A stretch of 64,000 bases of DNA from an uncultured Pirellulaceae bacterium (GCA_964476375.1 CAYYZW010000196.1:2282-66281), one strand, 5' to 3'. Shown: positions 8,201 through 61,210, numbered from the stretch's first letter. Program-made: numbers and translations. The notes: generated by a model not told the origin, from the sequence alone.

Positions 8201-10882
8201 ATGCGAATCCCCGCCGAGCGATATATCACCCCGCCACTTGTTTTCCTGCTGGCATTTGTCAGCGGTCTGCTCTCGGTGCAGGCCAGGGATCGCCAGGCGT
8301 CAGGACAGCCCTCTTACGAACAAGACGTGCGACCGATCTTCAAGGCCAACTGTTTTCATTGCCATGGCGAGGGAGAGGAACTCAAGGGGGGGCTCGACTT
8401 GCGGCTTCGCCGGCTGATTGTCGTGGGTGGTGAATCCGGACCGGCCGTGGTTCCCGGGGATGCCGATGAGAGCCTGCTTTTCCAGCATGTCAGCGCCGAC
8501 CAGATGCCCCCGGAGGAGGTGGAAAAGCGGCTGACCGGTGATGAGATTGCCCTGATTGGTCGCTGGATCAAGTCCGGGGCCCAGACGCTGCGTCCCGAGC
8601 CGGATCAGCTTGGCGACGAGCCTTACTTCACCGAGCAGGAAAGATCGTTCTGGGCCTTCCAGCCGATCAAGCGGATCAAGCCGCCCCAGGTTCGACAGCA
8701 GAATCGAGTGCGTAACCCGGTAGACCAGTTCCTGCTGGCCCGGCTTGAGCAGCAGGGGCTTGCCTACTCGGACGAGGCAGATCGGGCAACGCTTGTTCGC
8801 CGCGCTTACTTTGATCTGCTGGGGATTCCCCCCTCCCCGGCCGCCGTGGAGTCCTTTCTCTCGGATTCCAGCCCGGATGCCTATGACCGGCTCGTCGACC
8901 GGCTGCTCAGTTCTCCTGCTTACGGAGAACGCTGGGCACGCCACTGGCTGGACGTGGCAGGCTATGCCGATTCAGAAGGGGTGGTGGACGATGACCCGGT
9001 TCGAGCAAATGCTTTTCGCTATCGTGACTGGGTCATCAGCAGCATGGATGCCGACATGCCCCTGGACCAGTTCATCCGCCAGCAACTTGCTGGTGACGAG
9101 ATGGTTGGCCGGAAGCTGGAGAACCTGACGGCCGATGAAGTCAGTAAACTGACCGCGACGGGATTCCTGCGGATGGCACCGGATGGCACCGGGTCAGGAG
9201 ATGTGAACCAGGATGCGGCCAGGAATGCCGTTGTCTCCGAGACGATCAAGATTGTCTCGACCTCGCTGCTGGGGATCACGGTTGGCTGTGCCCAGTGTCA
9301 CAACCACCGCTATGATCCTATCAGCCAGGAGGATTATTACCGGCTGCGAGCGATCTTTGAGCCGGCCCTGGACTGGAAAAAATGGAAGTCACCAGGGGGC
9401 CGCCAGATCTCACTTTATACCGATGAAGATCGAGCGACATCCGCACGGGTCGAGGAGGAAGCGAAGAAGATTGACCAGGAACGACTGAAGAAGCAGTCGG
9501 ACTACATCCAGCAGACTTTTGAGAAGGAGCTCGCAAAGCTCCCGGAAGAGTTACGGGGTCCAATCCGCCAGGCCAGGGAGACGGCCGAAAAGGACAGGTC
9601 CGATGAACAAAAGCAGTTGCTCAAGGACAATCCCAGTGTCAATGTTTCGGCCGGCTCACTTTACCTTTACGACCAGAAGGCAGCCGATGACCTGAAGAGC
9701 TACACCGACCGGGCCACGAAGGTCCGTGAGACAAAACCCGAGGAGCGTTTTGTGAGGGCTCTGACGGAACCGATCAACCAGGATCCACCGGCAACCTTTG
9801 TCTTTTTCCGGGGGGATGTGAGCCAGCCTCGACAGCAGGTGACGGCTGCGGAACTGCCGATCCTGGATTCAGGCCAGGCCTCGCTTCTCCCGGAGAATGA
9901 TGAATCCCTGCCTACCACGGGACGCCGGCTTGCCTATGCCCGCTGGCTTACCAGTGGATCCCACCCGCTCGTCTCGAGAGTGCTGGTTAACCGGGTCTGG
10001 ATGCACCATTTTGGCCGCGGTATTGTGAATACCCCCGGGGATTTTGGTTACCTGGGAGTACGGCCGACCCACCCGGAACTGCTTGACTGGCTGGCCAGCG
10101 AGTTTGTGGAGCAGGGCTGGAGCCTGAAAAAACTTCACAGGCTGATGATGCTCTCCACGGCCTACCGACAGCAGTCGACGCGCAGCCCCGAGAAGGATGC
10201 CGTGGACGCGGATAACGAGCTTCTCTCCCGGATGGCAATGCGGAGGCTGGACGCGGAATCCCTGCGGGATGCGATCCTGGTCATCAACAAGAAATATAAT
10301 TCTCACCGGTACGGGCCACCCGTTCCGGTGATGGCGGACAAGGTTGGCCAGTTTGTTATCGGGATTGAAAACCTCAATGCCGGGCGGCCAGGAGCGGTGC
10401 TTCCGATGAAAGGGGAGGATTTCCGCCGCAGTGTTTATGTCCAGGTTCGTCGAAGCCGGCCGCTGGGAATGCTTGGTGTCTTTGACGCGGCGATCCTGGA
10501 GCCAAACTGCACCCAGAGGACCCAGTCGACCGTGACGCCCCAGGCACTGATGATGATGAATGGACGTTTTGTGCGTACCCAGTCCATTTACCTTGCCGAG
10601 CAGATCCAGCGAGAGGCGGGCAGGGATCTTGCCCCGCAGGTCAAACAGGCATGGCAGCTTGTCTACAGCCGGACAGCCGGGGAGCGGGAGCTGGAAGAAG
10701 CCGTCGAACTTCTCGCGCAGCTGGTAGAATATTTTGAAGAGCTCCTGGCCGACAAGGAGAAGGCAGGTGATAGCAGTGGTGACCTGGCAGAGCCAGTCAC
10801 CTCCAGTGACCCACAGGTCGAGGCCCTGGCAACGTTATGCCAGGCATTATTGAGTTCGAGCGAATTTCTTTACGTGGATTGA
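8201..10882 (+). CDS. PSCyt1 + DUF1549 (PSCyt2) + DUF1553 (PSD1) domain protein, 'class I'
   Basis: 893 aa with a signal peptide. It has an N-terminal planctomycete cytochrome-c motif ([18 protein letters not shown]), a DUF1549-type [12 protein letters not shown], and a DUF1553-type C-terminus ending SSEFLYVD. Confidence 0.85.
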
Positions 10883-10897
10883 AACAGGATCCAGGTC

Positions 10898-12340
10898 ATG
10901 AACCAGGAAATCAACCGGCAATCAACACGACGTCATTTCCTCTCCTCCAGTGCGATGGGTTTGAGCAGCGTGGCGCTATCATGCCTGCTACTGGAAGAGC
11001 AGTTGCAGGCCACCCCGCGAAAGCCAGGTACACAACCTGCCGCCTTTGACCTGGTCGCCAAGCAGCCGCACCATGCACCGCGAGCCAAGTCCGTGATCTC
11101 GCTGTGGATGCAGGGTGGGCCAAGCCATATTGACCTGTTCGATCCCAAGCCAAAACTTAATGAACTGGACGGGCAGAAGTTTCCCGGCAAGGTCAAGTAT
11201 GACAATGCGGCACAGGCAAGTGCCCGGGTCCTTGGTTGCCCCTGGAAATTCTCAAAGCACGGCGAATCCGGCATGGAGATTTCAGAACTGCTGCCAGGCA
11301 CGGCGGGCATCGCTGACGATATCACGTTGATTCGTTCCATGCACACGGGCGTCAACAACCATGGCCAGTCGATCCGGGCCCTGACCAATGGCACGACCCT
11401 TGGGGGCCAGCCTGCCCTGGGAAGCTGGGTCAGCTATGGTCTGGGTTCGGAAACCACGGATCTGCCGGCTTACCTTGCATTGATCGATCCGGGCCAGTTG
11501 CCGGTGATGGGTGTGGAGAACTGGAGCAATGGTTACCTGCCGTCGCTTTACCAGGGAACCGTTATCCGGCCTCGAGAGCCAAGAATTCTGAACCTGACCG
11601 CTCCCCAGAGAATGCGAGGCAGGCCCCAGGAACTCTATCTCCAGTTCCTGGAGAACTTGAATCGTTATCACCAGCTTGAGCGACCCGGGGAACTTGACCT
11701 GGACGCACGGACAAGTGTCTACCGCCTGGCATCCCGCATGCAAGTTGCCGCCCGCGAGGCACTGGATCTCAGCCAGGAGACCGAGGCGACCAAGAAGCTT
11801 TACGGGATGGATGATCCGGCAACCGCGGAGTATGGCTCGCGATGCCTGGTTGCCAGGCGAATGGTGGAGCGAGGGGTCCGTTTTATACAGGTCTTCACAC
11901 AAAACCAGTTCTGGGATCACCATGGTGGCATCCAGAAGAGCCTGCCGGCGGCCTGCAAGAAGGTCGATAAACCCTCGGCTGCCCTGGTGACGGACTTGAA
12001 ACAGCGCGGACTGCTTGACAGCACGGTCGTTCACTGGGGGGGTGAGATGGGCCGGTTGCCGGTGGTTCAGAACGAAGCCAATATCGGCCGGGATCACAAC
12101 ACCTACGGTTTCAGCATGTGGGTTGCCGGAGGAGGTTTCAAGGGCGGCTGCGTGTATGGTGAGACCGACGAGTTCGGCCACAAGGCGGTGGAGAATGTCG
12201 TTAACCACTACGACTACCACGCCACGCTTCTTCACCTGCTCGGCCTCGATCCTGACAAGCTGGTGTACGAGCATAATGGCCGGGAGCGCAAGCTGATCTC
12301 CCAGAATCCGGGCCGGATTGTCAAGGAGATCCTTGCCTGA
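10898..12340 (+). CDS. DUF1501 domain protein (sulfatase/alkaline-phosphatase-like fold), Tat-exported
   Basis: 480 aa. Twin-arginine STRRHFLSS, then WMQGGPSHIDLFDPKP, and IGRDHNTYGFSMWVAGGG near the C-terminus. It starts 15 nt after the PSD gene. Confidence 0.85.
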   Translation: MNQEINRQSTRRHFLSSSAMGLSSVALSCLLLEEQLQATPRKPGTQPAAFDLVAKQPHHAPRAKSVISLWMQGGPSHIDLFDPKPKLNELDGQKFPGKVKYDNAAQASARVLGCPWKFSKHGESGMEISELLPGTAGIADDITLIRSMHTGVNNHGQSIRALTNGTTLGGQPALGSWVSYGLGSETTDLPAYLALIDPGQLPVMGVENWSNGYLPSLYQGTVIRPREPRILNLTAPQRMRGRPQELYLQFLENLNRYHQLERPGELDLDARTSVYRLASRMQVAAREALDLSQETEATKKLYGMDDPATAEYGSRCLVARRMVERGVRFIQVFTQNQFWDHHGGIQKSLPAACKKVDKPSAALVTDLKQRGLLDSTVVHWGGEMGRLPVVQNEANIGRDHNTYGFSMWVAGGGFKGGCVYGETDEFGHKAVENVVNHYDYHATLLHLLGLDPDKLVYEHNGRERKLISQNPGRIVKEILA

Positions 12341-12362
12341 GCGGGGATCTCCGGCTTTCAGG

Positions 12363-14540
12363 TTACTCCAGCCACTTGAGTCCTTCGGCCAGGCCGGGGC
12401 GGGTCACAACGCTTTCTGCCTTCCCCCGGATCTTGTAGATATCCCCGGTTAATGTCGGGATGTCATCTCCTTCGCCAAGAATGCAGAGTTCTTGTGGTGC
12501 ATTGAGTGCCAGCAGTCCAGGCAGGTCGCCATAGCGAACAACGCCCGGCAGGAATTGAGGATCTCTCCAGCTCTTCAGGTCGACAAAACGAAACCCGCCC
12601 GTGTCGATCACGGCCTTGCTGACCACCTTGCCGGATTGGAATCGAGCTGCAGCAGCAACCGGGCCGGCACTGCCGGTGGCAATCAGGTGAATATCTTTTG
12701 TGCCATGGTCATCCTGGCTGACGAAGGCAATCAGTGTCAGCACGTCATGGACGCGCTGGGCAAAGAGCGTGTGGTTGTATGCATAGGTGAAGGCAGCGAC
12801 CTGTCGCTCATTAGCGACCTTGCGCTGCTCGCTGAGAGGCTTGCCATCGGCCAGGAATTCTCCCTGGTGGAGAAGGTCCGCGGAAAGGACAGCGTAACCC
12901 CCGGCGAGCAGATCCTTGACTTCCTGCCGGACAGAGTCGCCGTCATAAAGTGCCTGCTTGCCGTCCCCGTCAATCCAGATCACGACCGTGCCATTCCACT
13001 CGTTTTTGGTGGGAAAGAAAGAGACGACGGGCAGTTCTTCGCCCGCCTGCTTGTATCTCACCAGGTCACCGAACTCGAGATAATCACCGCGATCGATTTT
13101 TTGAACCTTCTCTCGCTCGAGATCTGCCGAGCCCGGCAAGGCCCGCCCGATCGTGATATCCATGGCTCCACCAAAGATCTTCTGGAAAGCCTGGAACGGT
13201 TTCTTGGCGTCAAAGACATTGTCCTGGATGCTGTCGGCTGCCAGCTTATCCATCCGCGCGAGGAGCTTTCGTTCGTAGCCCTCGCCTCCCTCGGGAGCCT
13301 TGTGATCGCCTGTCCAGACAGAAGACTCCTCCGCGGAAAGAGGTTCCCAGTCCTCCTCGATGATCGGCTCGTCGAGGCCAAGCTTCATGTGGAGATTGAA
13401 CCAGCGGTACATGATCGCCCGGGAGACGTAGTTGTAGTTATGGCCAAAGTGCAAAAGCTCCTTGGAAAAGACGTTCTCCTTGACTCCATAAAGCGAGTAG
13501 AGCTGCTGGAGTTCGGGATAACCCTTTGTTTGAATCTCCTTGGTCCAGTCATTGGCCCCGGTCATCGCCAGGGGCCGCGGGGCAAACAGGCCGGCCAGTT
13601 CCACGTTGCCCGAGTCAACTCGTAAGAGCACGCAGTTCTCACAGGTGCAGCCTCCCTGCATGGCGGTCGAAACCATCCCGTTCGGAAAAGAGACAATCGG
13701 GCGTGAGTCAATCGCACCCAGCAGGATGGTCTGGGTTCCCCCGCCACTTCCCCCGGTCACACCAATCCTTTTTGGATCCACGTCCGGCAGGGCGCTGAGA
13801 AAATCAAGTGCCCGGATGGCATTCCAGGTCTGAAGCCCCATGATGCTCTGGTTGCGGAGTTCCGCCTGGGCCGTAAAAAATCCCCAGGCATCCTTCGATT
13901 CCATCTGGGGGCGTGCATCCCGCAGCCGGTGGGCAACCGCCATCCCGATTTGCTGGCTGTCGACGTATCCTTCCATGTCGAAGATGAATGTCACGCATCC
14001 CATCCGTGCCAGCTGGGCACAGCGAGCCAGCTTGGGTGTCTTGCCCGACTTCTCGAATTTTTCATCGCCGCTGGCAATCAGCGTGGTGATTTTGTCGCCA
14101 TGGTTCTGCATGCGGCCACCGTGGCCGTGGGGACAGAGCACGGCCGGTCGGTTGGATCCCTCTCCCGCGGGCCGGAACAGCAAGCCGCTGACAAAGTGCC
14201 CCGGGTAACTCTGGAAGTAGACCTTTTCCACGGTAAAACCGTCCCGAACGGTCTTGCCGTGCAGGACCGGCTCCAGGGGTGTCCTCTCCGGCAGCGGCCA
14301 GAGGCCGTTGGCGACCAGGATGCGGCGACGCAGCTGCTCGGCTCGCTGTTCCCATTTTTCCCGTGTTGCGGGGACCGTGAAGGGGAAGTAGCCGTTCAGG
14401 TGATGGAGTTCACCAAGCCGCGCATCCCGGGGTGTGGATCCAGGCGACGTGACCCGCAGCCCCTCTGGCCAGGCCGTCCCGGGGAGCAGGAGCGAGGCAA
14501 GCATCAGGACGGAAATGGTTTTCAGCGCGCGCTGGAGCAT
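12363..14540 (-). CDS. Secreted alpha/beta hydrolase (acetyl xylan esterase / dienelactone hydrolase-like) with a large C-terminal extension
   Basis: 725 aa with a signal peptide. It has a nucleophile elbow GVTGGSGGG and a CPHGHGG motif. The N-terminal half resembles AXE1-type esterases common in Planctomycetota. Confidence 0.6.
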   Translation of the reverse strand: MLQRALKTISVLMLASLLLPGTAWPEGLRVTSPGSTPRDARLGELHHLNGYFPFTVPATREKWEQRAEQLRRRILVANGLWPLPERTPLEPVLHGKTVRDGFTVEKVYFQSYPGHFVSGLLFRPAGEGSNRPAVLCPHGHGGRMQNHGDKITTLIASGDEKFEKSGKTPKLARCAQLARMGCVTFIFDMEGYVDSQQIGMAVAHRLRDARPQMESKDAWGFFTAQAELRNQSIMGLQTWNAIRALDFLSALPDVDPKRIGVTGGSGGGTQTILLGAIDSRPIVSFPNGMVSTAMQGGCTCENCVLLRVDSGNVELAGLFAPRPLAMTGANDWTKEIQTKGYPELQQLYSLYGVKENVFSKELLHFGHNYNYVSRAIMYRWFNLHMKLGLDEPIIEEDWEPLSAEESSVWTGDHKAPEGGEGYERKLLARMDKLAADSIQDNVFDAKKPFQAFQKIFGGAMDITIGRALPGSADLEREKVQKIDRGDYLEFGDLVRYKQAGEELPVVSFFPTKNEWNGTVVIWIDGDGKQALYDGDSVRQEVKDLLAGGYAVLSADLLHQGEFLADGKPLSEQRKVANERQVAAFTYAYNHTLFAQRVHDVLTLIAFVSQDDHGTKDIHLIATGSAGPVAAAARFQSGKVVSKAVIDTGGFRFVDLKSWRDPQFLPGVVRYGDLPGLLALNAPQELCILGEGDDIPTLTGDIYKIRGKAESVVTRPGLAEGLKWLE

Positions 14541-14590
14541 GGAGTGTCCCTTTCACGAGGCGGGTTATCAGTTCTATGCAGCCCCCGGGG

Positions 14591-15928: not shown

Positions 15929-15943
15929 AGTTGAGCAGGTGGT

Positions 15944-16858: not shown

Positions 16859-16954
16859 GGTCCTTTTGAGCTTCTCTTGCTGCAGCGACAGCTATTAGTG
16901 ATAGGGGAGGTAGTACCCTGAATCAAGCATCCAACAGGGAAAGTCGCCAGGTAG

Positions 16955-19786: not shown

Positions 19787-19868
19787 CGGCTGTTTCCCAT
19801 TTACAAAGAGAATCTCTGGTCAGGCGAGAACAGAGCAGGGATTTCATGCCTGCATTCTACACGTCCCG

Positions 19869-19898: not shown

Positions 19899-19899
19899 T

Positions 19900-27739: not shown

Positions 27740-27741
27740 CC

Positions 27742-29739: not shown

Positions 29740-29742
29740 CCG

Positions 29743-32172: not shown

Positions 32173-32291
32173 ATCTCCCCCGCCGGAGGGGGGAACTGGA
32201 AAAACAATGAAATCCATGTTGCATCTACCCTGATTTGCCGACATCCTATAATGTAGTAACCCACCCGAATTCCCGCTTTCGAGCCTCCACG

Positions 32292-33701: not shown

Positions 33702-33713
33702 ACGGGGCCGTCG

Positions 33714-35030: not shown

Positions 35031-35341
35031 GACTCAACAGGGTTGGGGTACGGGGAGATGGTCAGGTCGGACGCTGCTCTTGTGCTGGCATAGTGCGTGT
35101 TATGACAGCCTCGCTATTTTACATCAACACCATCTCCTGCAAAAGAAGAATCGACTCCCAGGGCCCCTGGAGTGCATGTTTTCCCCACTTGTGGGTGGTC
35201 TCAACTGCTTCCATATAGCGTTACGTTTCGTGATTGGTCATACTGTCTAGTGCCTGCTGTGACGTGCACAAAACTCTCCTGCGTAAACCCTCAAATACTG
35301 AATTCAGGGTGCCTGGCACCCGGCATCCCATTGGGTGAGCG

Positions 35342-37831: not shown

Positions 37832-37840
37832 GGTCTCTGA

Positions 37841-50331: not shown

Positions 50332-50433
50332 AACAATTACTCACTATCCTGCCGCGGGATTGAAAGAGGCTCCCGCGGCTGTCATTATCATGGGAACAGG
50401 AAAGACGGCCTGCTGTGTCTGGAGCTGATCCTC

Positions 50434-53400
50434 ATGTATCGAATTATAGGAAAATGTTGGCTGCTGCTGTCCTGCGCGGGACTGTTTTTCCTTGCCGATT
50501 TACTCCAGGCAGAGGACCCGGCTGGGAGTTTCTTTGACAGCGAAGTCGCACCGCTGCTGGCTGCCCGCTGCGCGGAATGTCATCACGAGGAGGAGCCCGA
50601 GGGGAAGCTGAACCTGCTCAGCCAGGCGCCAGCCCGTAAGGGAGGCGAGAATGGGCCGGCCCTTGTCCCCGGCAATCTCCGGCAGAGCCTTCTCTGGCAG
50701 CGGGTTGTCGCCGATGAAATGCCCCCGGAAGACCCGCTTGATAAGCGGGAAAAGCAGATTCTGAAAAAGTGGATTGAAGACGGGGCCCGCTGGGGAACTG
50801 ACCCGGTTGACAGGTTCCGCTATACCACCGACAAGCGAGCTGGTTATGACTGGTGGGCCCTGCAGCCGTTCCAGCCGCAGAAGATTCCATCGCCCCGGCG
50901 CCATCGCCGGGTGCGCAACCCGATTGACGCCTTCCTTCTTTCCCGACTGGAAGAGGAGGGGCTCTCTTTTTCCGAGGATGCCGATCCCCGTACGCTTGTT
51001 CGGCGAGCCTACCTTGACTTCCATGGTCTCCCCCCGACGCCGGAGGACGTGGAGCAATTTGTTGCCGACCCGAGCGAGGAAGCGTACCAGCAGCTTCTGA
51101 CCGACCTGCTCGATTCACCCCGCTATGGCGAGCGATGGGGCCGTCACTGGCTGGACGTGGTGCGGTTCGGCGAGAGCGACGGGTTTGAGAGGAACAATCC
51201 CCGCAAGAACTTCTGGCCTTACCGTGACTGGGTGATCGAGGCGCTCAATGCCGATATGCCTTACAGCGAATTTGTCCGCATGCAGGTGGCGGGGGATGTG
51301 ATCAAGCCCGACACGGCCGAGGGATATGCTGCTGTTGGCTTCCTGGTGGCTGCAGTGCACAACACGGTTGTGGGTGGCAGCGAGATGATGAAGCGGCAGT
51401 CCCGCGCCGATGAAATCGAGGAACTGGTGGGGGCTATTGGCCAGACCTTTGTCGGGCTGACGGTCAACTGTGCCCGCTGCCATGCACACAAGTTTGATCC
51501 AATTTCCCAGGATGAGTATTACCAGCTCAGTGCCGCTGTGGCCGGGCTCAACCACGGAACCCGCGAGATCCAGCAGCCGGAGCAGCGCCAGCATGCCGAG
51601 CAGCTTGAGGCCAGGCGGAAAGAGGTCGCCACCCGGCTGACCGCCATTCGCACACGCGTGCGCGAACAGATTCTTGAGAAACGCAAGGGCACGGATCCGC
51701 CTGTTGTTGATCTCCCGGCACCCCTGGCGAGCTGGGAATTTGAAGAGGACTTCCAGGACAGCATCGGTACCCTGCATGGCACTCCACGGGGTGGTGCGCA
51801 CCTGGAAAATGGCGCCCTGGTACTTGACGGCAAGGATGATTACGTGATCACCGCCCCGATCACCAGGGAGATCACCGAGAAGACGCTCACGGCGCTGGTC
51901 CAGCTCGACAATCTCGATCAGCGAGGAGGGGGGGTGATCAGCCTGGAAACGACCGGGGGGGGTATCTTTGATGCGATCGTGTTTGGTGAAAGAGAGGCAC
52001 GACACTGGATGGCGGGAAGCAATGTCTTTGCCAGGACCGAGCCGTTCCAGGGCACGGAAGAGAAGGAGGTCACGGGTCGACCCGTGCATATCGCCATTGT
52101 TTATCGGAAGGACGGGACGATCACCGGCTACCGTGACGGAATGCTTTACGGCAGGTCCTACAAGACCGGCTTCCAGGCCTTTCCCGCGGACGGAGCTTCC
52201 CTGCTGTTTGGACTTCGGCACTCGCCGGCGGGTAACAACAAGCTTCTTGCAGGTCGTGTGCTACAGGCACAGCTCTTTGACCGGGCACTGGATGCCGAGG
52301 CGGTAGCGGCTGTTTCCGGGGATCCACAGAACTATATTCCAGAAAAGGAGATCGTCGCCTTTCTCAAGGGTGAGCAGCAGGCCGGCTACCTCGAGCTCAC
52401 GCAAAGGCAGCAGGAACTTGACGAGCAGATCAGCAAGGCTTCCCAGGCAGCGAAGCTGGTGATCTACACCAACGTGCCCCGCAGCCCGGCAGAGACTTTC
52501 TTCCTGAACCGCGGTGATGTGATGAACCGGGGCGAGCTGGTTGGCCCGGGTACCATCCGTGCTATTGCCGGGCTTTCAGGGGATCTTGGCCTTACCATGG
52601 ACGCCGGGGATGCAGAGCGTCGCCTGGCACTTGCCGACTGGCTCACCAGTGACCAGAACGCCCTGGCAACGCGCGTGATCGTGAACCGGCTCTGGCATTA
52701 TCACTTTGGCTCGGGGATCGTTGATACGCCCAGCGACTTTGGCTTCAATGGCTCACGACCGACTCACCCGGAACTGCTCGACTGGCTTTCCCAGCAGCTC
52801 CGCGAGAGTGAGTACCGCCTCAAGACCCTCCATCGCCTGGTTGCCTCTTCCACGGCCTACCGGCAGTCATCACGCTTCCGTGCCCGGTCGGCAGAAATGG
52901 ATGCCGATAACCGGCTGCTGTGGCGCAAGAGCCCGTACCGCGCGGAGGGAGAGGTGGTACGGGATTCGATCCTTGCGGTCAGTGGCCAGTTGAATGATAT
53001 GGCCGGCGGACCGGGGTTTGAAGATGTGAAGATTGAGCCCAACAACGGCACAACGTATTACAAGCCGTTTGACATGGACGACCCCAGTCTGAACCGCCGC
53101 ACAATCTACCGCTTTTCCCCACGCGGAGAGAGGATGGCCCTGCTGGATGTGTTTGACTGCCCGGATCCATCCGCCGCCGCACCGCGCCGCAGCCCCACGA
53201 CTACTCCACTGCAGGCTCTCAGCCTGCTCAATAATGCCTTTGTCCTTCGCATGGCAGATCATCTTGCCGCGAAGGTGAAAGAAGAAATGGGAGAGGCGCA
53301 GGTTTCGAAACAGGTCGACCGTGTTTTCCAGTTGACCCTGGGACGACTGGCGGAAAAAGAGGAGCAAGAAAAAGCGGTTGCACTCGTGGAGCAGCATGGC

Positions 53401-53457
53401 CTGGCGATCTTGGCCCGCACGCTTTTTAACACCAACGAGTTCCTGGTGATTCCCTGA
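50434..53457 (+). CDS. PSCyt1 + DUF1549 + LamG-like + DUF1553 protein, 'class I'
   Basis: The start is set at ATG 50434 (MYRIIGKCWLLLSCAGLFFLADLLQA, a signal peptide), because the ORF-track start at 50236 would overlap the divergent aminotransferase gene. Motifs: CAECHHEEEPEGKLNL, CARCHAHKFDPI, a LamG/concanavalin-like insert (LENGALVLDGKDDYV...LFDRAL), and a C-terminal TNEFLVIP. Confidence 0.85.
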   Translation: MYRIIGKCWLLLSCAGLFFLADLLQAEDPAGSFFDSEVAPLLAARCAECHHEEEPEGKLNLLSQAPARKGGENGPALVPGNLRQSLLWQRVVADEMPPEDPLDKREKQILKKWIEDGARWGTDPVDRFRYTTDKRAGYDWWALQPFQPQKIPSPRRHRRVRNPIDAFLLSRLEEEGLSFSEDADPRTLVRRAYLDFHGLPPTPEDVEQFVADPSEEAYQQLLTDLLDSPRYGERWGRHWLDVVRFGESDGFERNNPRKNFWPYRDWVIEALNADMPYSEFVRMQVAGDVIKPDTAEGYAAVGFLVAAVHNTVVGGSEMMKRQSRADEIEELVGAIGQTFVGLTVNCARCHAHKFDPISQDEYYQLSAAVAGLNHGTREIQQPEQRQHAEQLEARRKEVATRLTAIRTRVREQILEKRKGTDPPVVDLPAPLASWEFEEDFQDSIGTLHGTPRGGAHLENGALVLDGKDDYVITAPITREITEKTLTALVQLDNLDQRGGGVISLETTGGGIFDAIVFGEREARHWMAGSNVFARTEPFQGTEEKEVTGRPVHIAIVYRKDGTITGYRDGMLYGRSYKTGFQAFPADGASLLFGLRHSPAGNNKLLAGRVLQAQLFDRALDAEAVAAVSGDPQNYIPEKEIVAFLKGEQQAGYLELTQRQQELDEQISKASQAAKLVIYTNVPRSPAETFFLNRGDVMNRGELVGPGTIRAIAGLSGDLGLTMDAGDAERRLALADWLTSDQNALATRVIVNRLWHYHFGSGIVDTPSDFGFNGSRPTHPELLDWLSQQLRESEYRLKTLHRLVASSTAYRQSSRFRARSAEMDADNRLLWRKSPYRAEGEVVRDSILAVSGQLNDMAGGPGFEDVKIEPNNGTTYYKPFDMDDPSLNRRTIYRFSPRGERMALLDVFDCPDPSAAAPRRSPTTTPLQALSLLNNAFVLRMADHLAAKVKEEMGEAQVSKQVDRVFQLTLGRLAEKEEQEKAVALVEQHGLAILARTLFNTNEFLVIP

Positions 53458-53468
53458 ATGAGGAAAGC

Positions 53469-54896
53469 ATGAACCGGTCCCTTCATCGTCGCACGTTTTG
53501 CCAGTGGAGCCTCGAGGGCCTGGGGTCCATTGCTCTTCTGGATCTCCTTCGCCGTGACGGTCTGCTGGGCCAGGAAGGTGCCCTGGAAGGGGGGCTGCAT
53601 CATCCGCCGCGCGTGAAGCGAGCGATCCAGATCTGCCTGGTGGGTGGAATGAGCCATGTTGACTCGTATGACTACAAGCCGGAGCTGAGCAAGCGGCAGG
53701 GGAAATCACTTGACACGACGGTCAAGCCGGACATTTTCTTTGGCAAGGTTGGCCTGCTGCGGGGAAGCGACTGGGAATTTCGCCAGCGCGGTGAAAGTGG
53801 GCTCTGGATTTCCGAGATGTTCCCAGAGATCGCCAGGCGGGCGGATATGCTGACCGTGATTCGTTCGATGGTCTCGGACTCGGCAAACCATACACCGGCC
53901 CTGTTTGTCTCCAACAGTGGTTTCCAGGCCAACGGCTTTCCATCGCTGGGAAGCTGGCTGTCATTTGGGCTGGGGAGTGAGACAGAATCTCTCCCCGCCT
54001 ATGTTGTCCTGCCGGATGGCCGTGGGGGGCCCAACGGGGGTGCCTCGAACTGGAGCAGCGGCTTTTTGCCGGGTGAACACCAGGCTGTCGTCTTGCGTGG
54101 TGGAGATCAGCCAGTCCGCGACCTCTTCCCGTCCACACCGATCAGCGAACTGGCGGAGCGGGAGAGTCTCTCGCTCCTGCAACATCTCAACGAGAGGCAC
54201 CTTGCCAAAAATGGCCAGGATCAGCAATTGCTGGCCCGAATTCAAAGCTATGAACTGGCAGGACGGATGCAGCTGTCGGTGCCGGAGGTGAGTGACTATT
54301 CCTCCGAACCGGAGAGCGTTCGGGAGAAATATGGACTCCATGACCCTGCCACCGAGGACATGGGTCGCCGTTGTCTCTTGGGTCGCCGCTTGCTCCAGCG
54401 TGGAGTCCGTTTTGTCCAGCTTTACTCGGGCGGCCCGATTGCCGGGAGTCCGAGAGCAAGCTGGGATGCCCATGAAAGTGTCAAGGATAATCACACGCTG
54501 GAAGCCGGTAAAATCGACAGGCCCGTGGCGGCCCTGCTGGATGACCTTCAGCAGAGAGGAATGCTCAAGGACACGCTGGTGCTCTTCACGACCGAGTTTG
54601 GTCGAACGCCCTTTGCCCAGTCCGATGCCGACAAGGTCGGTCCCGGGCGCGATCACAACCGCTATGGGTTCAGTTGCTGGATGGCCGGGGGTGGCCTGCG
54701 GCCTGGATTCGCTTTTGGGGAAACGGATGAGGTTGGATGGAAAGCGGTCACTGATCCGGTCAGCTGGAATGACTTTCACGCGACGATCATGCATCTGTTT
54801 GGTGTCGACCACCGGAAACTGACCTTTTATCACAATGGCATCCAGCGAAGGCTGACGAATGTTGCCGGTGATGTTGTCACGGGTGTTCTTGCCTGA
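53469..54896 (+). CDS. DUF1501 domain protein, Tat-exported ('class I' signature)
   Basis: 475 aa. Motifs: SLHRRTFCQW, ICLVGGMSHVDSYDYKP and GPGRDHNRYGFSCWMAGGG. GAGGAAAG lies upstream, and the gene starts 11 nt after the PSD stop. Confidence 0.85.
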   Translation: MNRSLHRRTFCQWSLEGLGSIALLDLLRRDGLLGQEGALEGGLHHPPRVKRAIQICLVGGMSHVDSYDYKPELSKRQGKSLDTTVKPDIFFGKVGLLRGSDWEFRQRGESGLWISEMFPEIARRADMLTVIRSMVSDSANHTPALFVSNSGFQANGFPSLGSWLSFGLGSETESLPAYVVLPDGRGGPNGGASNWSSGFLPGEHQAVVLRGGDQPVRDLFPSTPISELAERESLSLLQHLNERHLAKNGQDQQLLARIQSYELAGRMQLSVPEVSDYSSEPESVREKYGLHDPATEDMGRRCLLGRRLLQRGVRFVQLYSGGPIAGSPRASWDAHESVKDNHTLEAGKIDRPVAALLDDLQQRGMLKDTLVLFTTEFGRTPFAQSDADKVGPGRDHNRYGFSCWMAGGGLRPGFAFGETDEVGWKAVTDPVSWNDFHATIMHLFGVDHRKLTFYHNGIQRRLTNVAGDVVTGVLA

Positions 54897-55001
54897 GGTG
54901 GCTGATATGGAATCCCTCCGGTGAATAGTCAATAATAAGGAACACGTCGATCGACCTGGTTGGCGTACCGACCCACCTGCTTTCACACCCCAGGGCGGAT
55001 C

Positions 55002-57446
55002 ATGCGTTACGCAACTTGTCAAACGATCCTCCTGGTCACCCTGTTGGTCGTCCCGGTTAACCTGCTGGCCCAGTCGTCCGCCCGGACCGAGCCAATTAGC
55101 AGGATCGAGTTGATGCCGGCAGAAGTGGTGCTTGAAGGAGCCGGTGCCAGTCGCCAGCTCCTGGTCACGGGTATCACCCGCTCGGGAGAAGAGGTCGACC
55201 TCACCCACCAGGCGAGTTACCAGTTGTCCGGCCCGGAAATTGCCATCGTGGACAACCAGGGAGTGATCCAGTCACGAGGCGATGGAGAGGGACGGCTGAG
55301 GTTGCGTGCCCGTGGATAGGACCTGGTGACCTCCGTCCGCGTGGCCGGTTCCACGGTCCGCCGGCCGTTAAATTTTAATAATGACGTGATTCCGATCATG
55401 AGTCGCTTTGGCTGCAACGCGTCGGGTTGCCACGGAAAGGCGGAGGGCCAAAACGGGTTCAAACTCTCGGTTTTTGGTTTTGATGCTACCAGCGATTTCC
55501 AGGCACTGGTGATGCAGGGACGTGGCCGCCGGGTTTTTCCAGCCAGCCCGGAGAAGAGCCTGCTGCTGCAGAAGGTATCCGGTGGTACACCGCATGGTGG
55601 CGGTGTGCGAATTATCCCGGGACAGCCGGCTTATGAGACCCTGCTCAACTGGATAAAAGCGGGCACGCCCGTTGGCCGGGATGATGATCCTCGGGTTGTT
55701 GGCATCCAGGTGTTCCCGGACCAGCGAGTTGTGAATATGACCAGGCCGCAACAGCTCCAGGTGATTGCAAGCTTTTCAGATGGACGGGTGGAAGATGTGA
55801 CCCGGCTTTCTTCCTTCCAGACCAATAGTGAAATACTCGGCACCGTGGATGAAACCGGCCTGGTGATGGCGGGCGAGTCACCTGGGACCGTGGCGGTGAT
55901 GGCGACCTACATGGGGCAGGTGGACGTCTTTCGGGCCATTATCCCTCGTACCGAGTCGATCCGCGAATACCCGGATGTGGCAGAAGAGAATTTTATTGAC
56001 CGGCACGTGAACGATCAGCTGCGCAAGCTGAACCTTCTTCCCTCTCCTCCCGCGGACGATGCCACGTTCCTCCGCCGCGTCTACCTGGACATCATAGGCA
56101 CGCTCCCCACCGCAGCCGAGGCCAGGCAGTTCCTGGAGGAGAGGGATCCGGAGCGACGAGCCAGGCTGGTTGATCGCCTGCTGGAGCGGCCGGAGTTCGC
56201 TGACTACTGGGCGCTGAAATGGTCGGATCTTTTGCGGGTTGACCGGCTTGCACTGGGGCACAAGAGTGCCTTTGAGTATTACCGCTGGATTCGTGACAGC
56301 ATCGCCGAGCACAAGCCACTTGACCAGTTCGCCAGGGAAATCCTGTTGGCCGAAGGCCCGCTGCGAGACTCTGCCGCCGGCGTCTTTTACAAGGCGGTGG
56401 GTTCTCCCAACAAGCAGGCGAGTACCCTTTCCCAGATCTTCCTGGGGATACGAATCGAGTGCGCCGAGTGCCACCATCACCCGTTTGACCGCTGGAGCCA
56501 GAACGATTATTTCGGCATGCAGTCGTTCTTTACCCAGGTCAAGTTCAAGGGGTCGCCGCAGGGGGAGGTGATCTTTACCGAGGGTAACCCGGAGACGAAA
56601 CATCCCCGCAGTGGTGCCCCGGTTTTCGCCTATCCGCTGGGCGAGACCATGCCGGGAGAACACCCTGCCGGGGATCGCCGCGTGACACTGGCTCGCTGGT
56701 TCACGTCGGGAGAGAATCCCTTTTTTGCACGCAACCTGGCCAACCGGGCCTGGGCTCATTTCATGGGTTCCGGGGTCGTGCAACCGGTGGATGATGTGCG
56801 GTTAACCAATCCCCCGTCCAACCCGGCGCTGCTCGACGGGCTCGCCAAGGACCTGGTCGCGCATGGCTTTGATTTCCGGCAGCTGGTCCGTGCGATCACC
56901 AGCTCGGCTGCCTACCAGCGCAGCTCCTCGGTCAGTAAGAACAATGCGCGCGACGAGCAGAACTACTCCCGCTACCTGTTCAAGCAGCTGGAAGCGGAGG
57001 TCTTCATGGATGCGATAAGCCAGACAACCGGGATCGCGGAGAAGTTCCATGGTGTTCCGGAAGGGAGCCGCGCGATCCAGTTATGGGATAGCCAGGTACC
57101 GCACTACCTGTTGAAATTATTCGGTCGGCCTTCACGAGTCACGGCGTGTGATTGTGAGCGGATTTCCGAGCCAACGGTGGGGCAGGTTCTGCATGTGTTA
57201 AATTCCCCGGAAATTCACAAGAAAATATCCCATGCCGGGGGGCATATTGCTGTACTGGTCGCTGGAATACCGGACAATGACGTCCTGGTAGATGAGCTTT
57301 ACCTGACATTTTTCGCCCGTTTTCCAGATGTGGCCGAGAGGAAAAATGGCGTAGAATACATAAACAGCCAACCGGATCGACGTCATGCAGCCGAAGATCT
57401 TTCATGGAGCATGATGAATTCGCTGGAGTTCATGTTTAACCACTAA
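55002..57446 (+). pseudogene. Ig-like (Big_2) + DUF1549 + DUF1553 'class II' gene interrupted by a single in-frame TAG (55317-55319)
   Basis: ORFs 54960-55319 and 55326-57446 are in the same frame. Read through, the sequence ...GEGRLRLRARG*DLVTSVRVAG...FGCNASGCHGKAEGQNGF aligns colinearly with paralogs 35342 (...MIRVKYKRWRSDVTVTV...HGCNMGACHA) and 29743. The signal peptide begins at ATG 55002 (MRYATCQTILLVTLLVVPVNLLAQ). Downstream motifs are CAECHHHPFDRW and a C-terminal SLEFMFNH. Confidence 0.7.
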
Positions 57447-57470
57447 TAGCTTGTGCCAGAGGGAAAAAAA

Positions 57471-58811
57471 ATGAAACGGCAGAAGACATTCTGCGATGGA
57501 ACCAGCCGTCGTGACATGCTGCGGTATGGGGCCGCGGGGCTTTTTGGCATGGGTATTACCCTGCCCCAGTTGCTCCAGCAAAAAGCATATGCTGTCGAGC
57601 AGGGAAAGTCCGCAAGTGATGTGTCGTTGATCATCGTCTTCCTGCAGGGAGGGCTCTCCACGATCGACACCTGGGACATGAAGCCCGATGCCCCGGCAGA
57701 GTTTCGCGGTGAGTTTGATCCCATCAGCACCAATGTCCCGGGAATCCAGCTCTGTGAACACCTGCCGCAACTGGCCCAGCAGATGGACAAGCTCTCGCTG
57801 GTCCGTTCCTTCGGTCATAGTAACTCCGGGCATGGACCGGCCGACCACTGGATGCTGACCGGCTACCATCCCCAGGGGGGATTCAACTCCGGCCTGAAGC
57901 CAAATAACCAGAAACCCTGTTACGGATCGGTCATTGCCCAGCAGCTGGGGCCGCGTGGATCGGTGCCTCCCTATGTCTGCCTGCCGAAGATGCACAACAG
58001 TGGTGGTTCTGCAGACCTTGGGTCCTCCTTCGCCCCGTTTGTCGTGGAGGCGGATCCCAATGCTCCCAACTTCGCTGTCCCCGACCTGGCTCCACCGATC
58101 GATATCGCTGCCGACCGACTTGGCTCCCGAAGGGAACTCCTGGCTCGCGTCAACCGCTTTGAGCAGGCCGCCGAGGTGCGAGCCAACAGGGGGGTGCGGG
58201 CCATGAGCACCTACCAGCAGAAAGCATTTGACCTGATGACGTCGACGGCGACCAAGGCGGCCTTTAATATCCACCGGGAGAGCGACAAGCTCCGGGACCA
58301 GTATGGCCGGCATTCCCTGGGGCAGTCCTGCCTGATGGCACGACGACTGGTGGAGGCTGGTGTCCGATGTACGTTCATCGACCACACCAACTGGGATACT
58401 CATTACAACAACTTCCACGTTCTCAAGAATGACCTGCTCTGGCAACTCGACAGTGCCCTTTCCACCCTGCTTCGAGACCTGGATGAAAGGCGAATGCTGG
58501 ACACGACCATGGTCCTGGTGACCGGTGAGTTTGGTCGCACGCCACGCGTCAATCAGCACGCGGGACGGGACCACTGGGGGCCCAGTAGTGCGATTGCCAT
58601 GGCCGGTGGCGGCATCCAGGGTGGCCGTGTGGTGGGAGCGTCCAATGCGCGGGCCGAAAAGCCGGCCACCACTCCCTTTGGCCCGGCCGATCTGGCTGCG
58701 ACCATCTACCATGGACTGGGGATCAACCCAAAGACCGAGTACCGGACAGCCGAGGGTCGTCCGATTCCGATCGTACCGGGCGAGGGCAGGGTTATCGAGG
58801 AACTCTTCTAG
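57471..58811 (+). CDS. DUF1501 domain protein, Tat-exported ('class II' signature)
   Basis: Motifs: MKRQKTFCDGTSRRDMLRYGAAG, IVFLQGGLSTIDTWDMKP and HAGRDHWGPSSAIAMAGGG. I prefer the ATG at 57471, which is preceded by AGAGGG, over the GTG at 57453. Confidence 0.85.
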   Translation: MKRQKTFCDGTSRRDMLRYGAAGLFGMGITLPQLLQQKAYAVEQGKSASDVSLIIVFLQGGLSTIDTWDMKPDAPAEFRGEFDPISTNVPGIQLCEHLPQLAQQMDKLSLVRSFGHSNSGHGPADHWMLTGYHPQGGFNSGLKPNNQKPCYGSVIAQQLGPRGSVPPYVCLPKMHNSGGSADLGSSFAPFVVEADPNAPNFAVPDLAPPIDIAADRLGSRRELLARVNRFEQAAEVRANRGVRAMSTYQQKAFDLMTSTATKAAFNIHRESDKLRDQYGRHSLGQSCLMARRLVEAGVRCTFIDHTNWDTHYNNFHVLKNDLLWQLDSALSTLLRDLDERRMLDTTMVLVTGEFGRTPRVNQHAGRDHWGPSSAIAMAGGGIQGGRVVGASNARAEKPATTPFGPADLAATIYHGLGINPKTEYRTAEGRPIPIVPGEGRVIEELF

Positions 58812-58846
58812 CCGTCTGGAAAAAGTGATCCTCCCGGGAGGGTTCC

Positions 58847-61210
58847 ATGACAACCTTTTATTCTTGCTGTCGCCAGGGGCTGTCGATCCTGCTGCTCGCA
58901 CTCCTCGCGCCTGTTCTCCAGGCGGATGCTCCCAGTGTCTCCTACATTTTTCCGGCGGGGGGACAGCGGGGGACGACAGACACGTTCAACGTGGGGGGCC
59001 ATTTAAACCACGACAAGTGTGGATACCAGATGCTCGGGCCGGGTGTGACAGCCAGTGAGAGGATCAAGCGGGCGAGCCACACGACCTGGTTCGAGGGACC
59101 CCTGATCCCGATGCCAGCCTCGCAGGCCAAAGAGAATTACCCCAAGGACCAGGCCGGCGAGGTGGAGATCGCCATGGATGCTCCGGTTGGGTTCCGGCGC
59201 TGGCGGGTCTGGACCAGCCAGGGGGCGACACCCACGAGGAAGTTTGTCATCGGTGACCTTCCGGAGGTCGTGGAAGAAGAAATTGATGGTACCCCGGTAC
59301 CGACAAAGGTCACCCTGCCGGTCACGATTAATGGCCGGATTTTCCCGCGCGAGGATGTCGACCACTGGATCTTCCACGCCGTGCAGGGGACAGGTTATAC
59401 CTGCGAGGTGATGGCCCAGCGGCTGGGATCTCCACTCGATTCCCGCCTTGAACTGCGTGGGCCCAAAGGCCAGCGACTGGCCGACAACACGGATGCCATT
59501 GGCTCCGATTCCCGGATCTCGTTTGTTGCGACCGAGACCGGTCTCCACGAACTCCGGATACATGATGTGAAGTTTGGAGGGCTCCAGGACTATGTTTACC
59601 GCCTGACCATCACCGATCGGCCTCACGTGGAAAGGTTCTTTCCGCTGGGTGGACGGCGCGGGGAAGAGCTCCAGCTGGAACTGGTTGGCCAGAACCTGGG
59701 TGATGGGAAAGTGGCCGTGACCGTCCCCGCCGGAGCCGATCCGGTCTGGCTGACGCGGCTGAGGGTGGATGATCAGCCGGTGAATGCCATCCAGCTGGAG
59801 ACGAGTGATCTGCCCGAGTACCGTGAGGCCGCCGGGGGCGATCGGATTGCCAGGGCCCTGCCCGCGATTTTCAACGGGCGTATTGGCAAGCCCGGAGAAA
59901 AAGATACCTGGGAGTTCCAGGCGATTAAGGACCAGAAAATTGAACTGGACGTGCGAGCAGCCCGGCTTGGATCCCTGCTTGATTCGGTGCTCACGGTACT
60001 GGATTCAGAAGGCAAGGAAATTGCCTCGTCGGATGACCTGGCAGGTGGCCAGTCTGATTCCAAGTTGACTTTCACCGTCCCGGCCGATGGAAATTACCAG
60101 GCGCAGGTGCAGGAGCGGTTTGCCACACGTGGTGGGCCAGCCTTTACCTACCGTCTTGTTGCCGGTCCGGTGGTAGAAGCAGCAAAGGATTTCCAGTTGG
60201 TTCTGACTGCTGATACGTTCACCGTGAACCGGGGTGCGGAAGGAAAATTCAAGGTCACGGTTCAGAGGAAGGGTGGTTTTGCTGGGGAGATCCAGCTGGC
60301 CGTGGAGGGTTTGCCCGGGGGCATCGAGCTGACCGGGAACACGATTCCAAAAGACAAGAATGAAACATCGCTGGGACTGAAAGTTCCCGGGGATGCTTCC
60401 ATCCAGGTTGTGCCGCTGAAAATACTAGGAACAGCGATGGTGGAGGATGCCGAGCTGAGGCGGGTGGCAACCCAGGCGGCAGCAACCCCGGATGACCTTT
60501 CGCTTGATGAGCTGTCTCTTGCCATTGCCATGCCGACGCCGTACAAGATCGTGGGGGTTTTCCAGACACAATATGCTCCACGCGGTGGTACTTTTTTACG
60601 CACGTTCTCGATCGAACGTACCGGCTATGACGGTCCGATCACGGTCAGCCTGGGGGACCGGCAGGTACGACACCTGCAGGGAGTGACCGGGCCGACGATT
60701 GTTGTGCCCGCGGGAGCCACTGAATTTAGCTACCCGATCAAGCTGGCACCCTGGATGGAAGTCGGGCGTACCAGCCGGACGGTCGTGATGGGTGTTTCTG
60801 TCCAGGATGATGGACAGGGTGGTAAGCAGAAGGTGAGCTACACGTCCCACGAACAGAATGACCAGATTATCATCCTGGTGGACCCGGGGCAGCTGCAGGT
60901 CCAGGTCGAACCGGAGGCGATATTCTTTCAGCCAGGAGGGACAATGGATGTCCAGGTGACTGTCGACCGGGGGCGTGGACTGGAGGGGGATGTGCTGATC
61001 GAGCTGGTGCCCCCAGCGCATATCAAGGAGGTGGTGGCCACGCCGGTCAGGCTGCCAGCAGAACAGCGGGAGGGGGTGCTCAAAGTCCGCTTTGCCGAAA
61101 TGCTTACATCTCCTCTCAATATGCCTTTTACCGTACGGGTCACTGCCATGCCCGGTGGCAACCCTTATACGGCCGAGGCCAAGCTGTCGGTCATCAAGCC
61201 GTCTCGCTAG
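58847..61210 (+). CDS. Secreted protein with an Ig-like N-terminal domain and two PPC-like domains (paralog of 27742 and 37841)
   Basis: 787 aa with a signal peptide and GGGAGG upstream. PPC blocks are INGRIFPREDVDHWIFHAVQGTGYTCEV...QRLGSPLDSRLELRGPKGQRL and FNGRIGKPGEKDTWEFQAIKDQKIELDV...ARLGSLLDSVLTVLDSEGKEIASSDD. Confidence 0.65.
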   Translation: MTTFYSCCRQGLSILLLALLAPVLQADAPSVSYIFPAGGQRGTTDTFNVGGHLNHDKCGYQMLGPGVTASERIKRASHTTWFEGPLIPMPASQAKENYPKDQAGEVEIAMDAPVGFRRWRVWTSQGATPTRKFVIGDLPEVVEEEIDGTPVPTKVTLPVTINGRIFPREDVDHWIFHAVQGTGYTCEVMAQRLGSPLDSRLELRGPKGQRLADNTDAIGSDSRISFVATETGLHELRIHDVKFGGLQDYVYRLTITDRPHVERFFPLGGRRGEELQLELVGQNLGDGKVAVTVPAGADPVWLTRLRVDDQPVNAIQLETSDLPEYREAAGGDRIARALPAIFNGRIGKPGEKDTWEFQAIKDQKIELDVRAARLGSLLDSVLTVLDSEGKEIASSDDLAGGQSDSKLTFTVPADGNYQAQVQERFATRGGPAFTYRLVAGPVVEAAKDFQLVLTADTFTVNRGAEGKFKVTVQRKGGFAGEIQLAVEGLPGGIELTGNTIPKDKNETSLGLKVPGDASIQVVPLKILGTAMVEDAELRRVATQAAATPDDLSLDELSLAIAMPTPYKIVGVFQTQYAPRGGTFLRTFSIERTGYDGPITVSLGDRQVRHLQGVTGPTIVVPAGATEFSYPIKLAPWMEVGRTSRTVVMGVSVQDDGQGGKQKVSYTSHEQNDQIIILVDPGQLQVQVEPEAIFFQPGGTMDVQVTVDRGRGLEGDVLIELVPPAHIKEVVATPVRLPAEQREGVLKVRFAEMLTSPLNMPFTVRVTAMPGGNPYTAEAKLSVIKPSR

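Follow-up and report, generated by a model that had tools for sequence, protein, structure and literature searches.

Paralogous DUF1501–PSD gene modules of two known classes, one of them with a PPC-repeat partner, in an uncultured Pirellulaceae bacterium

Few paralogous families in Planctomycetota and Verrucomicrobiota are larger than those of the DUF1501 and PSCyt/PSD proteins. All DUF1501 neighbourhoods in genomes of the Planctomycetes-Verrucomicrobia-Chlamydiae (PVC) group were analysed by Kamneva et al. (2012; Genome Biol Evol 4:1375, PMC3542564), who described a simple pair of DUF1501 and PSCyt1/PSCyt2/PSD1, with or without Laminin_G_3, and a "most complex" cluster of four genes. The latter encodes a DUF1501 protein with a twin-arginine translocation (Tat) signal, a signal-peptide protein with a weak PPC match, a PSCyt1/Big_2/PSCyt2/PSD1 protein and a PSCyt1/WD40 protein. 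In their DUF1501 tree, genes with similar locus architectures grouped together, and a correlation of 0.852 with the presence of internal membranes was reported. PSCyt architectures in Verrucomicrobia, including a PSCyt1/PSCyt2/PSD1 group, were later grouped by He et al. (2017; PMC5615132), and the PSCyt genes were found to neighbour unknown genes, sulfatases, and carbohydrate-binding modules. Later papers in the literature searched only cite these two studies. Here, genes of these families are described from a 64,000-nucleotide stretch of DNA of an uncultured Pirellulaceae bacterium (GCA_964476375.1 CAYYZW010000196.1:2282-66281; in the following, the window), where they lie between positions 8201 and 61210. 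They fall into two classes, which are ancient, separately evolving modules. The module genes for DUF1501, PSD, and PPC-repeat proteins stay adjacent across changes in gene order and diverge in step.

Two classes of co-varying modules

The gene inventory was taken with Pfam and with a six-frame scan that used hidden Markov models (HMMs) built from the window's own proteins. Exactly 14 genes of three families were found (Table 1): five that encode PSCyt2 and PSD1 (in the following, PSD genes), six DUF1501 genes, and three mutually homologous PPC-repeat genes. They are always adjacent and are arranged in five loci, namely two class I pairs and three class II loci, with gaps of 2-35 nt between genes inside a locus and of 105-119 nt at the module borders. 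An earlier reading of the window, made from the sequence alone (the sequence-only reading), had given the same numbers of genes and the same adjacency, and the HMM annotation that it proposed recovered both the families and the motifs it had quoted: CFHCH and CAECH in the class I PSD proteins, GCNSGGCH, GCNMGACH, and GCNASGCH in those of class II, and CNGVTRR, CDGVSRR, CDGISRR, and CDGTSRR in the class II DUF1501 proteins. Its contrast between GRDHN..GFS.W.AGGG in class I DUF1501 and GRDHW in class II also holds throughout the window; both class I copies (10898, 53469) carry GRDHN.YGFS.W.AGGG. In all five PSD genes PSCyt2 (PF07583) is followed by PSD1 (PF07587), each with 133-277 bits and above the gathering score, with the gene at 55002 scored as its downstream piece only. 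All six DUF1501 proteins match PF07394 over profile positions 1-390 with 277-460 bits (gathering score 27), the class I copies at 455-460 bits and the class II copies at only 277-325 bits.

For comparison, two sets of loci were drawn from elsewhere. The first holds 80 loci of species-representative genomes, picked by similarity to the class I DUF1501. Its query was a mixture of three sequences, and the best 80 loci, ranked against the first sequence, were class I-like only. Class II was therefore sampled separately, as 80 metagenome loci picked by similarity to a class II DUF1501. As samples of the DUF1501 family, both sets are thus biased. Every open reading frame (ORF) of the 160 loci was classified with separate HMMs for each family and class, and after near-identical loci had been collapsed, 88 non-redundant adjacent PSD-DUF1501 pairs were available from these loci and the window together.

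The type of the PSD protein agreed with that of the DUF1501 protein in all 88 pairs, with 54 class I pairs, 34 class II pairs, and none mixed (Fisher p = 4e-25). The two co-varying classes proposed from the window are thus borne out, and the DUF1501 motif states segregate perfectly with the PSD type: the residue after GRDH is N or H in class I and W or Y in class II, without exception. CNxxxCH occurs in 31 of 31 class II PSD proteins with an intact N-terminus, and one further protein has both motifs; no class I PSD carries it. Less strict is the signature around the twin arginines. A Cys six residues before them is found in 25 of 33 class II DUF1501 proteins and in none of 52 from class I (p = 6e-15), and the strict form C-[DN]-G-x-[ST]-R-R, which the sequence-only reading had taken as a mark of class II, is present in all four window genes, is absent from the same 52, and occurs in only 15 of the 33. 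This form is a majority signature of some subclades and does not define the class. In addition, many class II-like DUF1501 genes (GRDHW) have neither a PSD nor a PPC neighbour despite 5-10 kb of flanking sequence; most of the PSD-less copies form a subclade of their own that lacks the Cys.

Twenty complete triads of DUF1501, PSD, and PPC genes could be compared directly. Pairwise distances in the three families are correlated with r = 0.90-0.93 (Mantel p <= 2e-4), and the triads show five different gene orders. Two of the three triads in the window are nearer to triads of other organisms than to each other: 55002/57471/58847 matches loci L081 and L083, and 33714c/35342/37841 together with 32292 matches L126. 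Identity to the closest orthologue decreases from DUF1501 (70-78%) through PSD (55-63%) to PPC (45-56%). Modules of class I and class II are stacked in islands in the window (50434-61210) and in L086, L102/L103, L107, and L169, and their components are never mixed there.

Table 1. Genes of the DUF1501, PSD, and PPC-repeat families in the window (aa, amino acids; Ig, immunoglobulin-like domain)
Feature	Coordinates	Strand	Properties
Class I PSD	8201-10882	+	893 aa; signal peptide, PSCyt1 (CFHCH...MPP), PSCyt2, PSD1
Class I DUF1501	10898-12340	+	480 aa; Tat signal STRRHFL, GGPSHID, GRDHN; Pfam 460 bits
Class II DUF1501	26231-27739	+	502 aa; LCNGVTRRDWM, GSPPQHE (no Ser), GRDHW; Pfam 285 bits
PPC-repeat partner	27742-29739	+	665 aa; secreted; most divergent of the three; recognised by homology only
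Class II PSD	29743-32172	+	809 aa; signal peptide, Ig, CNSGGCH haem-like domain, Big_2, PSCyt2, PSD1
Class II DUF1501	32292-33701	+	469 aa; HCDGVSRREFL, GGPPQMD (no Ser), GRDHW
Class II DUF1501	33714-35030	-	438 aa; CCDGISRRGLL, GGTSHHD, GRDHW; divergent from PSD 35342
Class II PSD	35342-37831	+	829 aa; Big_2, CNMGACH, PSCyt2, PSD1
PPC-repeat partner	37841-39964	+	707 aa; Sec signal, six beta-sandwich domains, two of them PPC-like
Class I PSD	50434-53457	+	~1007 aa; PSCyt1 (CAECH...MPP), PSCyt2, Laminin_G_3, PSD1
Class I DUF1501	53469-54896	+	475 aa; RR signal, GGMSHVD, GRDHN; Pfam 455 bits
Class II PSD, TAG-interrupted	55002-57446	+	downstream piece 55326-57446: CNASGCH, PSCyt2, PSD1
Class II DUF1501	57471-58811	+	446 aa; FCDGTSRRDML, GGLSTID, GRDHW
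PPC-repeat partner	58847-61210	+	787 aa; secreted; Pfam PPC 40 bits

The class II loci of the window differ in composition and order. The first (26231-32172) opens with the DUF1501 gene 26231 and has the order DUF1501-PPC-PSD; the other orders are DUF1501(reverse)-PSD-PPC and PSD-DUF1501-PPC. There are four class II DUF1501 genes to three PSD/PPC pairs, and the additional copy, 32292, belongs with 33714c, 35342, and 37841. Together they form a module of two DUF1501 genes, on the plus and minus strand, followed by PSD and PPC genes on the plus strand (32292-39964). The same module with two DUF1501 genes is present in the distant relatives L126 (4975-12795) and L161/L162. In L126, the orthologue of 32292 (L126_11350) has the same arrangement, 33714c is 78% identical to L126_9968, and the PSD proteins share 63% identity. 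Because the module is conserved in these relatives, 32292 is assigned to the second class II locus and not to the first. Synteny with L161/L162 extends from a glutamine synthetase gene through 26231 to 35342 without a break. In the third locus, 57471 is 70-71% identical to the DUF1501 proteins and 58847 is 45-49% identical to the PPC partners of L081 and L083, both of which have the order PSD-DUF1501-PPC. The class II PSD proteins belong to a very large family, as a single search with 29743 retrieved more than 4680 homologues.

Several neighbouring genes are worth recording. A gene for a calcineurin-like metallophosphoesterase (39982-40746) begins 17 nt past the PPC gene 37841-39964 and possibly belongs to the same operon. 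Further downstream, a 994-aa haem-binding CxxCH protein of the PVC type is encoded on the minus strand (42699-45683) beside an SMP-30/gluconolactonase-like gene (41651-42652); its N-terminal region matches TIGR02604 with 65.5 bits, below the cutoff of 122.2 bits, and its C-terminal CxxCH domain matches TIGR02603 above cutoff. Another SMP-30-like gene (6933-7991) lies just upstream of the class I PSD gene 8201. Outside the window, closely related class I DUF1501/PSD pairs occur in metagenome-assembled genomes (MAGs) labelled Bryobacterales, Chitinophaga, and Alcaligenaceae (L004, L032, L041, L052), which points either to a distribution that reaches beyond the PVC group or to contigs placed in the wrong bin.

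Domains and motifs of the module proteins

The two classes of PSD proteins differ most clearly in their N-terminal haem-like domain. In class I, the proteins 8201 and 50434 contain CxxCH and match PSCyt1 (PF07635) with 51 and 49 bits, above the gathering score of 22 bits; the PSCyt2 and PSD1 matches of 8201 reach 255 and 271 bits. Against the same PSCyt1 profile, the class II domain scored 13.7 and 16.8 bits in two copies and gave no match in the third, and it has CNxxxCH (C-x4-C-H) where PSCyt1 has CxxCH. An hhalign comparison of the class II domain with the class I PSCyt1 gave a probability of 97.6% (E = 3e-12), with two extra residues inside the haem motif. Judged from these alignments, the CNxxxCH domain is a diverged PSCyt1 that probably works in a similar way but stands outside the family by Pfam's criterion. 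Candidate distal ligands differ as well. In class I, a Met follows about 53 residues after the first Cys in 51 of 51 proteins, mostly as MPP. A His at +60 is found in 24 of 29 class II proteins (pattern H[GTS]G, mostly PHGGG), all 29 of which have an Asn directly after the first Cys. These patterns suggest haem ligation by His/Met in class I and by His/His in class II.

Expanded CX4CH haem motifs exist in c-type cytochromes, for example at some haems of tetrahaem cytochrome c3. The class II domain resembles them in its C-x4-C-H motif and the conserved distal His. It differs in the invariant Asn and in its location between two Ig-like domains within a protein of 800 aa, and its haem binding is putative. 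The AlphaFold model of the PSD protein 29743 (predicted local distance difference test, pLDDT, 86) opens with a signal helix and an Ig domain. The CNxxxCH domain comes next, small, helical, and modelled with low confidence; it is followed by a second Ig domain and a large helical PSCyt2/PSD1 core. Big_2 scores above threshold in 29743 and 35342.

In the third class II PSD gene (55002-57446), an in-frame TAG at 55317-55319, which the sequence-only reading had missed, interrupts the N-terminal Ig domain. It leaves a fragment of 119 aa with the signal peptide and an incomplete Ig domain, whereas the rest, which bears GCNASGCH, has no signal. In the relatives L086, L091, and L106, the Ig domain is uninterrupted and an ordinary residue occupies the position of the TAG; L081, L083, and L085 have no Ig domain and their own signal peptide at the start. 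A conserved split or recoding site was considered and rejected, as the relatives are either intact or Ig-less and a beta-strand motif is cut midway by the TAG. The stop codon is no conserved feature and stems from either a recent nonsense mutation or an error in the sequence.

Outside their own family, the DUF1501 proteins match sulfatases, LtaS, and ENPP exclusively. All these matches are weak, among them the DUF229 and Sulfatase matches of 26231 in Pfam, and they span the strand-helix region before the metal-binding motif. In the alignments, the "SDHG" of sulfatases corresponds to "GEFGR" of DUF1501, and the GRDH motif of DUF1501 follows 10-15 residues later. DUF1501 proteins also differ from sulfatases, LtaS, and ENPP in their predicted Tat export and in lacking the C/S-x-P-x-R formylglycine signature. 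These similarities are consistent with a metalloenzyme of the alkaline phosphatase superfamily. An assignment to the type I sulfatases (S1, PF00884) was rejected, as the best match reached 18.6 bits (threshold 25) and C/S-x-P-x-R is missing. A putative catalytic Ser in the N-terminal motif GGxS[HQ]xD distinguishes copies within the family. It is replaced in 26231 and 32292 of the window and also in L126, L093/L094, L106, and L109. Of the two copies in the module with two DUF1501 genes, 32292 (PPQ) lacks the Ser and 33714c (TSH) has it, likewise in L126. GRDH, D.(F/W)D.KP, and further invariant residues are kept in all copies. At the N-terminus, all four class II DUF1501 proteins of the window have [ST]RRx[FLWM][LM] followed by a hydrophobic stretch. 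Predicted export signals are Tat RR motifs on DUF1501 and signals of the general secretory (Sec) type on the PSD and PPC proteins.

The three PPC-repeat proteins (27742, 37841, 58847) share 23% pairwise identity over their full length. Of the proteins described as tandem-PPC in the sequence-only reading, only 37841 and 58847 score above the Pfam threshold, with 38 and 40 bits for PPC (PF04151, gathering score 25.9 bits) and one repeat each; sequence pattern and structural model show a second PPC-like repeat. The third, 27742, has no Pfam PPC match and was recognised only by homology to the other two. Homologues of 27742 (P0001-P0010) are 46-92% identical. In the AlphaFold model of 37841 (pLDDT 86; predicted template modelling score 0.84), two PPC-like domains are interleaved with four Ig-like beta-sandwiches, and a Foldseek search with this model returned only generic multi-beta-sandwich proteins and the tandem ColG collagen-binding domains, the latter as a structural match of single domains, with no catalytic fold. 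On this model, the PPC partner looks like a scaffold or binder rather than an enzyme.

The presence of a PPC gene was counted only at loci with at least 2.6 kb of flank on both sides. PPC genes were found at 13 of 17 class II loci and at none of 29 class I loci (p = 2e-8). This agrees with the proposal that only class II recruits the third partner. The stronger claim that every class II locus contains one is true of the window and fails outside it, where L094, L107, L128, and L150 have neighbours that are unrelated according to Pfam; no overlooked PPC gene turned up in these loci when the HMM was built anew from 30 homologues. The partner is also encoded elsewhere. Four of eight PPC homologues whose context was examined stand alone, and four lie in class II clusters, three of these also with a PSCyt1/WD40 gene. 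The stand-alone proteins have about 630-680 aa and come from Gemmataceae- or Singulisphaera-type genomes; one (P0051) has a faint PF09099 match. Thus, the PPC partner is specific to class II, yet neither obligatory for class II nor dedicated to it. Fusions of the PPC partner with Laminin_G_3 occur among the homologues, and in P0118 part of its sequence is fused with PSCyt1 and WD40 repeats, which links the third and fourth components of the cluster. One of the PPC-less class II pairs (L128) is flanked by genes for a chondroitinase-B-like beta-helix protein and a type I sulfatase (5913-7406, 11367-12905), a weak hint at sulfated-glycan metabolism.

A proposed exported complex and its rivals

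The five loci are paralogous copies of two known Planctomycetes-Verrucomicrobia locus types, and their products probably form an exported complex. All products would leave the cytoplasm, DUF1501 in folded form through the Tat pathway and the PSD and PPC proteins through Sec, and the three would assemble in the periplasm. DUF1501 would act as a sulfatase-like metalloenzyme of the alkaline phosphatase superfamily on a polymer or oligomer that carries ester groups. The PSD protein would supply one or two c-type haems together with Ig or lectin-type binding modules, and the all-beta PPC protein may be an optional scaffold or substrate-binding subunit. Because haem motif and axial ligand differ, the redox potential of class II might differ from that of class I.

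Several points weigh against an exported complex of this kind. The loci were picked via two DUF1501 proteins of the window (at least about 39% identity), and coverage of the family is partial. No specific PDB matches were obtained with the DUF1501, PSD, and PPC sequences, NCBIfam has nothing for these families, and the literature searched on the three gives no function beyond genomic context. The Foldseek comparison of the PSD model with the PDB returned Ig matches only and no analogue for the PSCyt2/PSD1 core, so that any role of this core is a guess. Attachment of haem to CNxxxCH is putative only. The DUF1501 proteins do not have the C/S-x-P-x-R of sulfatases; looser [CS]x[PA]xR matches contain Ala and lie at non-homologous positions. 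Moreover, all 99 class I proteins have the Ser of GGxS[HQ]xD, and 35 of 105 class II-like proteins have Pro, Ala, or Gly in its place; many class II DUF1501 may therefore be other hydrolases or no enzymes. To these points are added the four PPC-less class II loci, the stand-alone PPC homologues, and the fact that co-divergence is also expected from simple co-inheritance.

If co-inheritance were the whole explanation, the co-variation would be a historical footprint of modules that were duplicated en bloc, and the proteins might act independently. Common descent would then account for the matched signatures, and the cognate partner specificity suggested by the sequence-only reading, taken as physical recognition, is putative. 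The Mantel correlations are as co-inheritance alone predicts, and the frequent stacking of both classes in islands is in line with such a history. Nevertheless, this explanation is unlikely. Adjacency has outlasted five gene orders and strand flips and spans Planctomycetota, Verrucomicrobiota, and Bryobacterales-labelled MAGs, no mixed pair was seen although the classes lie side by side where recombination could mix them, and gaps of 2-15 nt suggest coupled translation. A related view concerns the PPC protein, which may act independently as a secreted binding or adhesin-like protein and, without being a subunit, merely be encoded beside class II pairs in many cases. Its stand-alone homologues, its absence from some class II loci, its rapid evolution (45-56% identity where DUF1501 has 70-78%), and the generic beta-sandwich fold of the model would all suit this view. 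What makes it rather improbable is that the PPC gene is never found beside class I (0 of 29), that its tree mirrors the DUF1501 and PSD trees (r = 0.91-0.93), that it lies 2-35 nt from its operon neighbours, and that the Laminin_G_3 fusions and the PSCyt1/WD40 fusion P0118 tie it to other components.

The remaining alternatives concern function. Many class II DUF1501 proteins might be pseudo-enzymes with a binding or regulatory role, any catalysis residing in a second DUF1501 or in the PSD protein. This would suit the replacement of a Ser that is invariant in class I, and the pairing of a Ser-less with a Ser copy in the window and L126. However, the role of this Ser as nucleophile is only putative, GRDH, D.(F/W)D.KP, and the other invariant residues are retained in all copies, and the triads L091, L106, and L109 have a single DUF1501 that is Ser-less; pseudo-enzymes in this role are also rather improbable. 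The modules might instead be membrane-associated electron-transport units tied to the intracellular membranes of compartmentalised PVC bacteria (Kamneva et al., 2012, PMC3542564), a view to which the predicted haem-binding motifs of the PSD proteins, Tat export as typical of redox enzymes, and the published correlation of 0.852 with internal membranes all lend themselves. This is very unlikely, as the loci encode no transmembrane or quinone-binding component, DUF1501 resembles hydrolases and no redox enzymes, and class I relatives occur in MAGs labelled Bryobacterales (L004, L032) and Chitinophaga (L041). In addition, the "intracellular membrane" view of planctomycetes has meanwhile given way to one of an enlarged periplasm. 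Just as improbable is a more specific proposal, in which class II would be a redox-linked periplasmic machine: an unusual, His/His-ligated CNxxxCH haem would trade electrons with the metal centre of the cognate DUF1501, and the PPC protein would dock the complex onto a polymeric substrate. In that case, DUF1501 would be an oxidative or redox-gated enzyme and no plain hydrolase, and the conserved Cys in the n-region of its Tat signal would take part in cofactor loading or proofreading before export.

Comparison with the described locus types

The exported complex proposed here would be built from components already described together. The sequence-only reading had implied that the two kinds of loci were new; in fact the two types of locus, the partner with weak PPC similarity, and a DUF1501 phylogeny in which genes group by locus architecture were published in 2012 (PMC3542564). 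The two-class pattern is real and robust, but it is a rediscovery, and its novelty lies only in motif-level detail. Two cognate classes, one with a third partner, are broadly correct as an interpretation, though its universal statements go too far.

The class I loci of the window (8201-12340, 50434-54896) match the simple pair of Kamneva et al. (2012) exactly. DUF1501 begins 15 nt past the PSD stop codon in one locus and 11 nt past it in the other, one of the two has Laminin_G_3, and the PSD-DUF1501 pairs from the 80 loci picked by class I similarity look alike, with no notable difference. The class II loci resemble the four-gene cluster in their Tat-DUF1501, their signal-peptide protein with weak PPC similarity, and their Big_2/PSCyt2/PSD1 protein, and locus 26231-32172 keeps the order DUF1501-PPC-PSD. 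Unlike that cluster, the three loci lack the PSCyt1/WD40 gene: the six-frame HMM scan found no further PSCyt1-bearing ORF in the window, and the neighbours encode ThuA, the metallophosphoesterase, and unknown proteins. The full four-gene form was found in L120, L132, L144, L165, L166, and L169, with confirmation by Pfam in L132 and L144. Two window loci also have other gene orders, one module has two DUF1501 genes, and the "PSCyt1" of the window's class II PSD proteins is the CNxxxCH variant below Pfam's threshold.

Five details are absent from the literature searched: the CNxxxCH/His variant of PSCyt1, the alternation of N/H and W/Y after GRDH, the n-region Cys of the Tat signal, the replacement of the Ser that class I has, and figures for the frequency of the PPC gene. 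To the published locus types, the window thus adds diagnostics by which class I and class II can be told apart, namely CxxCH...MPP against CNxxxCH...PHGGG, GRDH[N/H] against GRDH[W/Y], and a Cys that precedes the twin arginines by six residues. How far the PPC partner belongs to class II is now also bounded by numbers. Both additions could guide the choice of a minimal two- or three-gene module.

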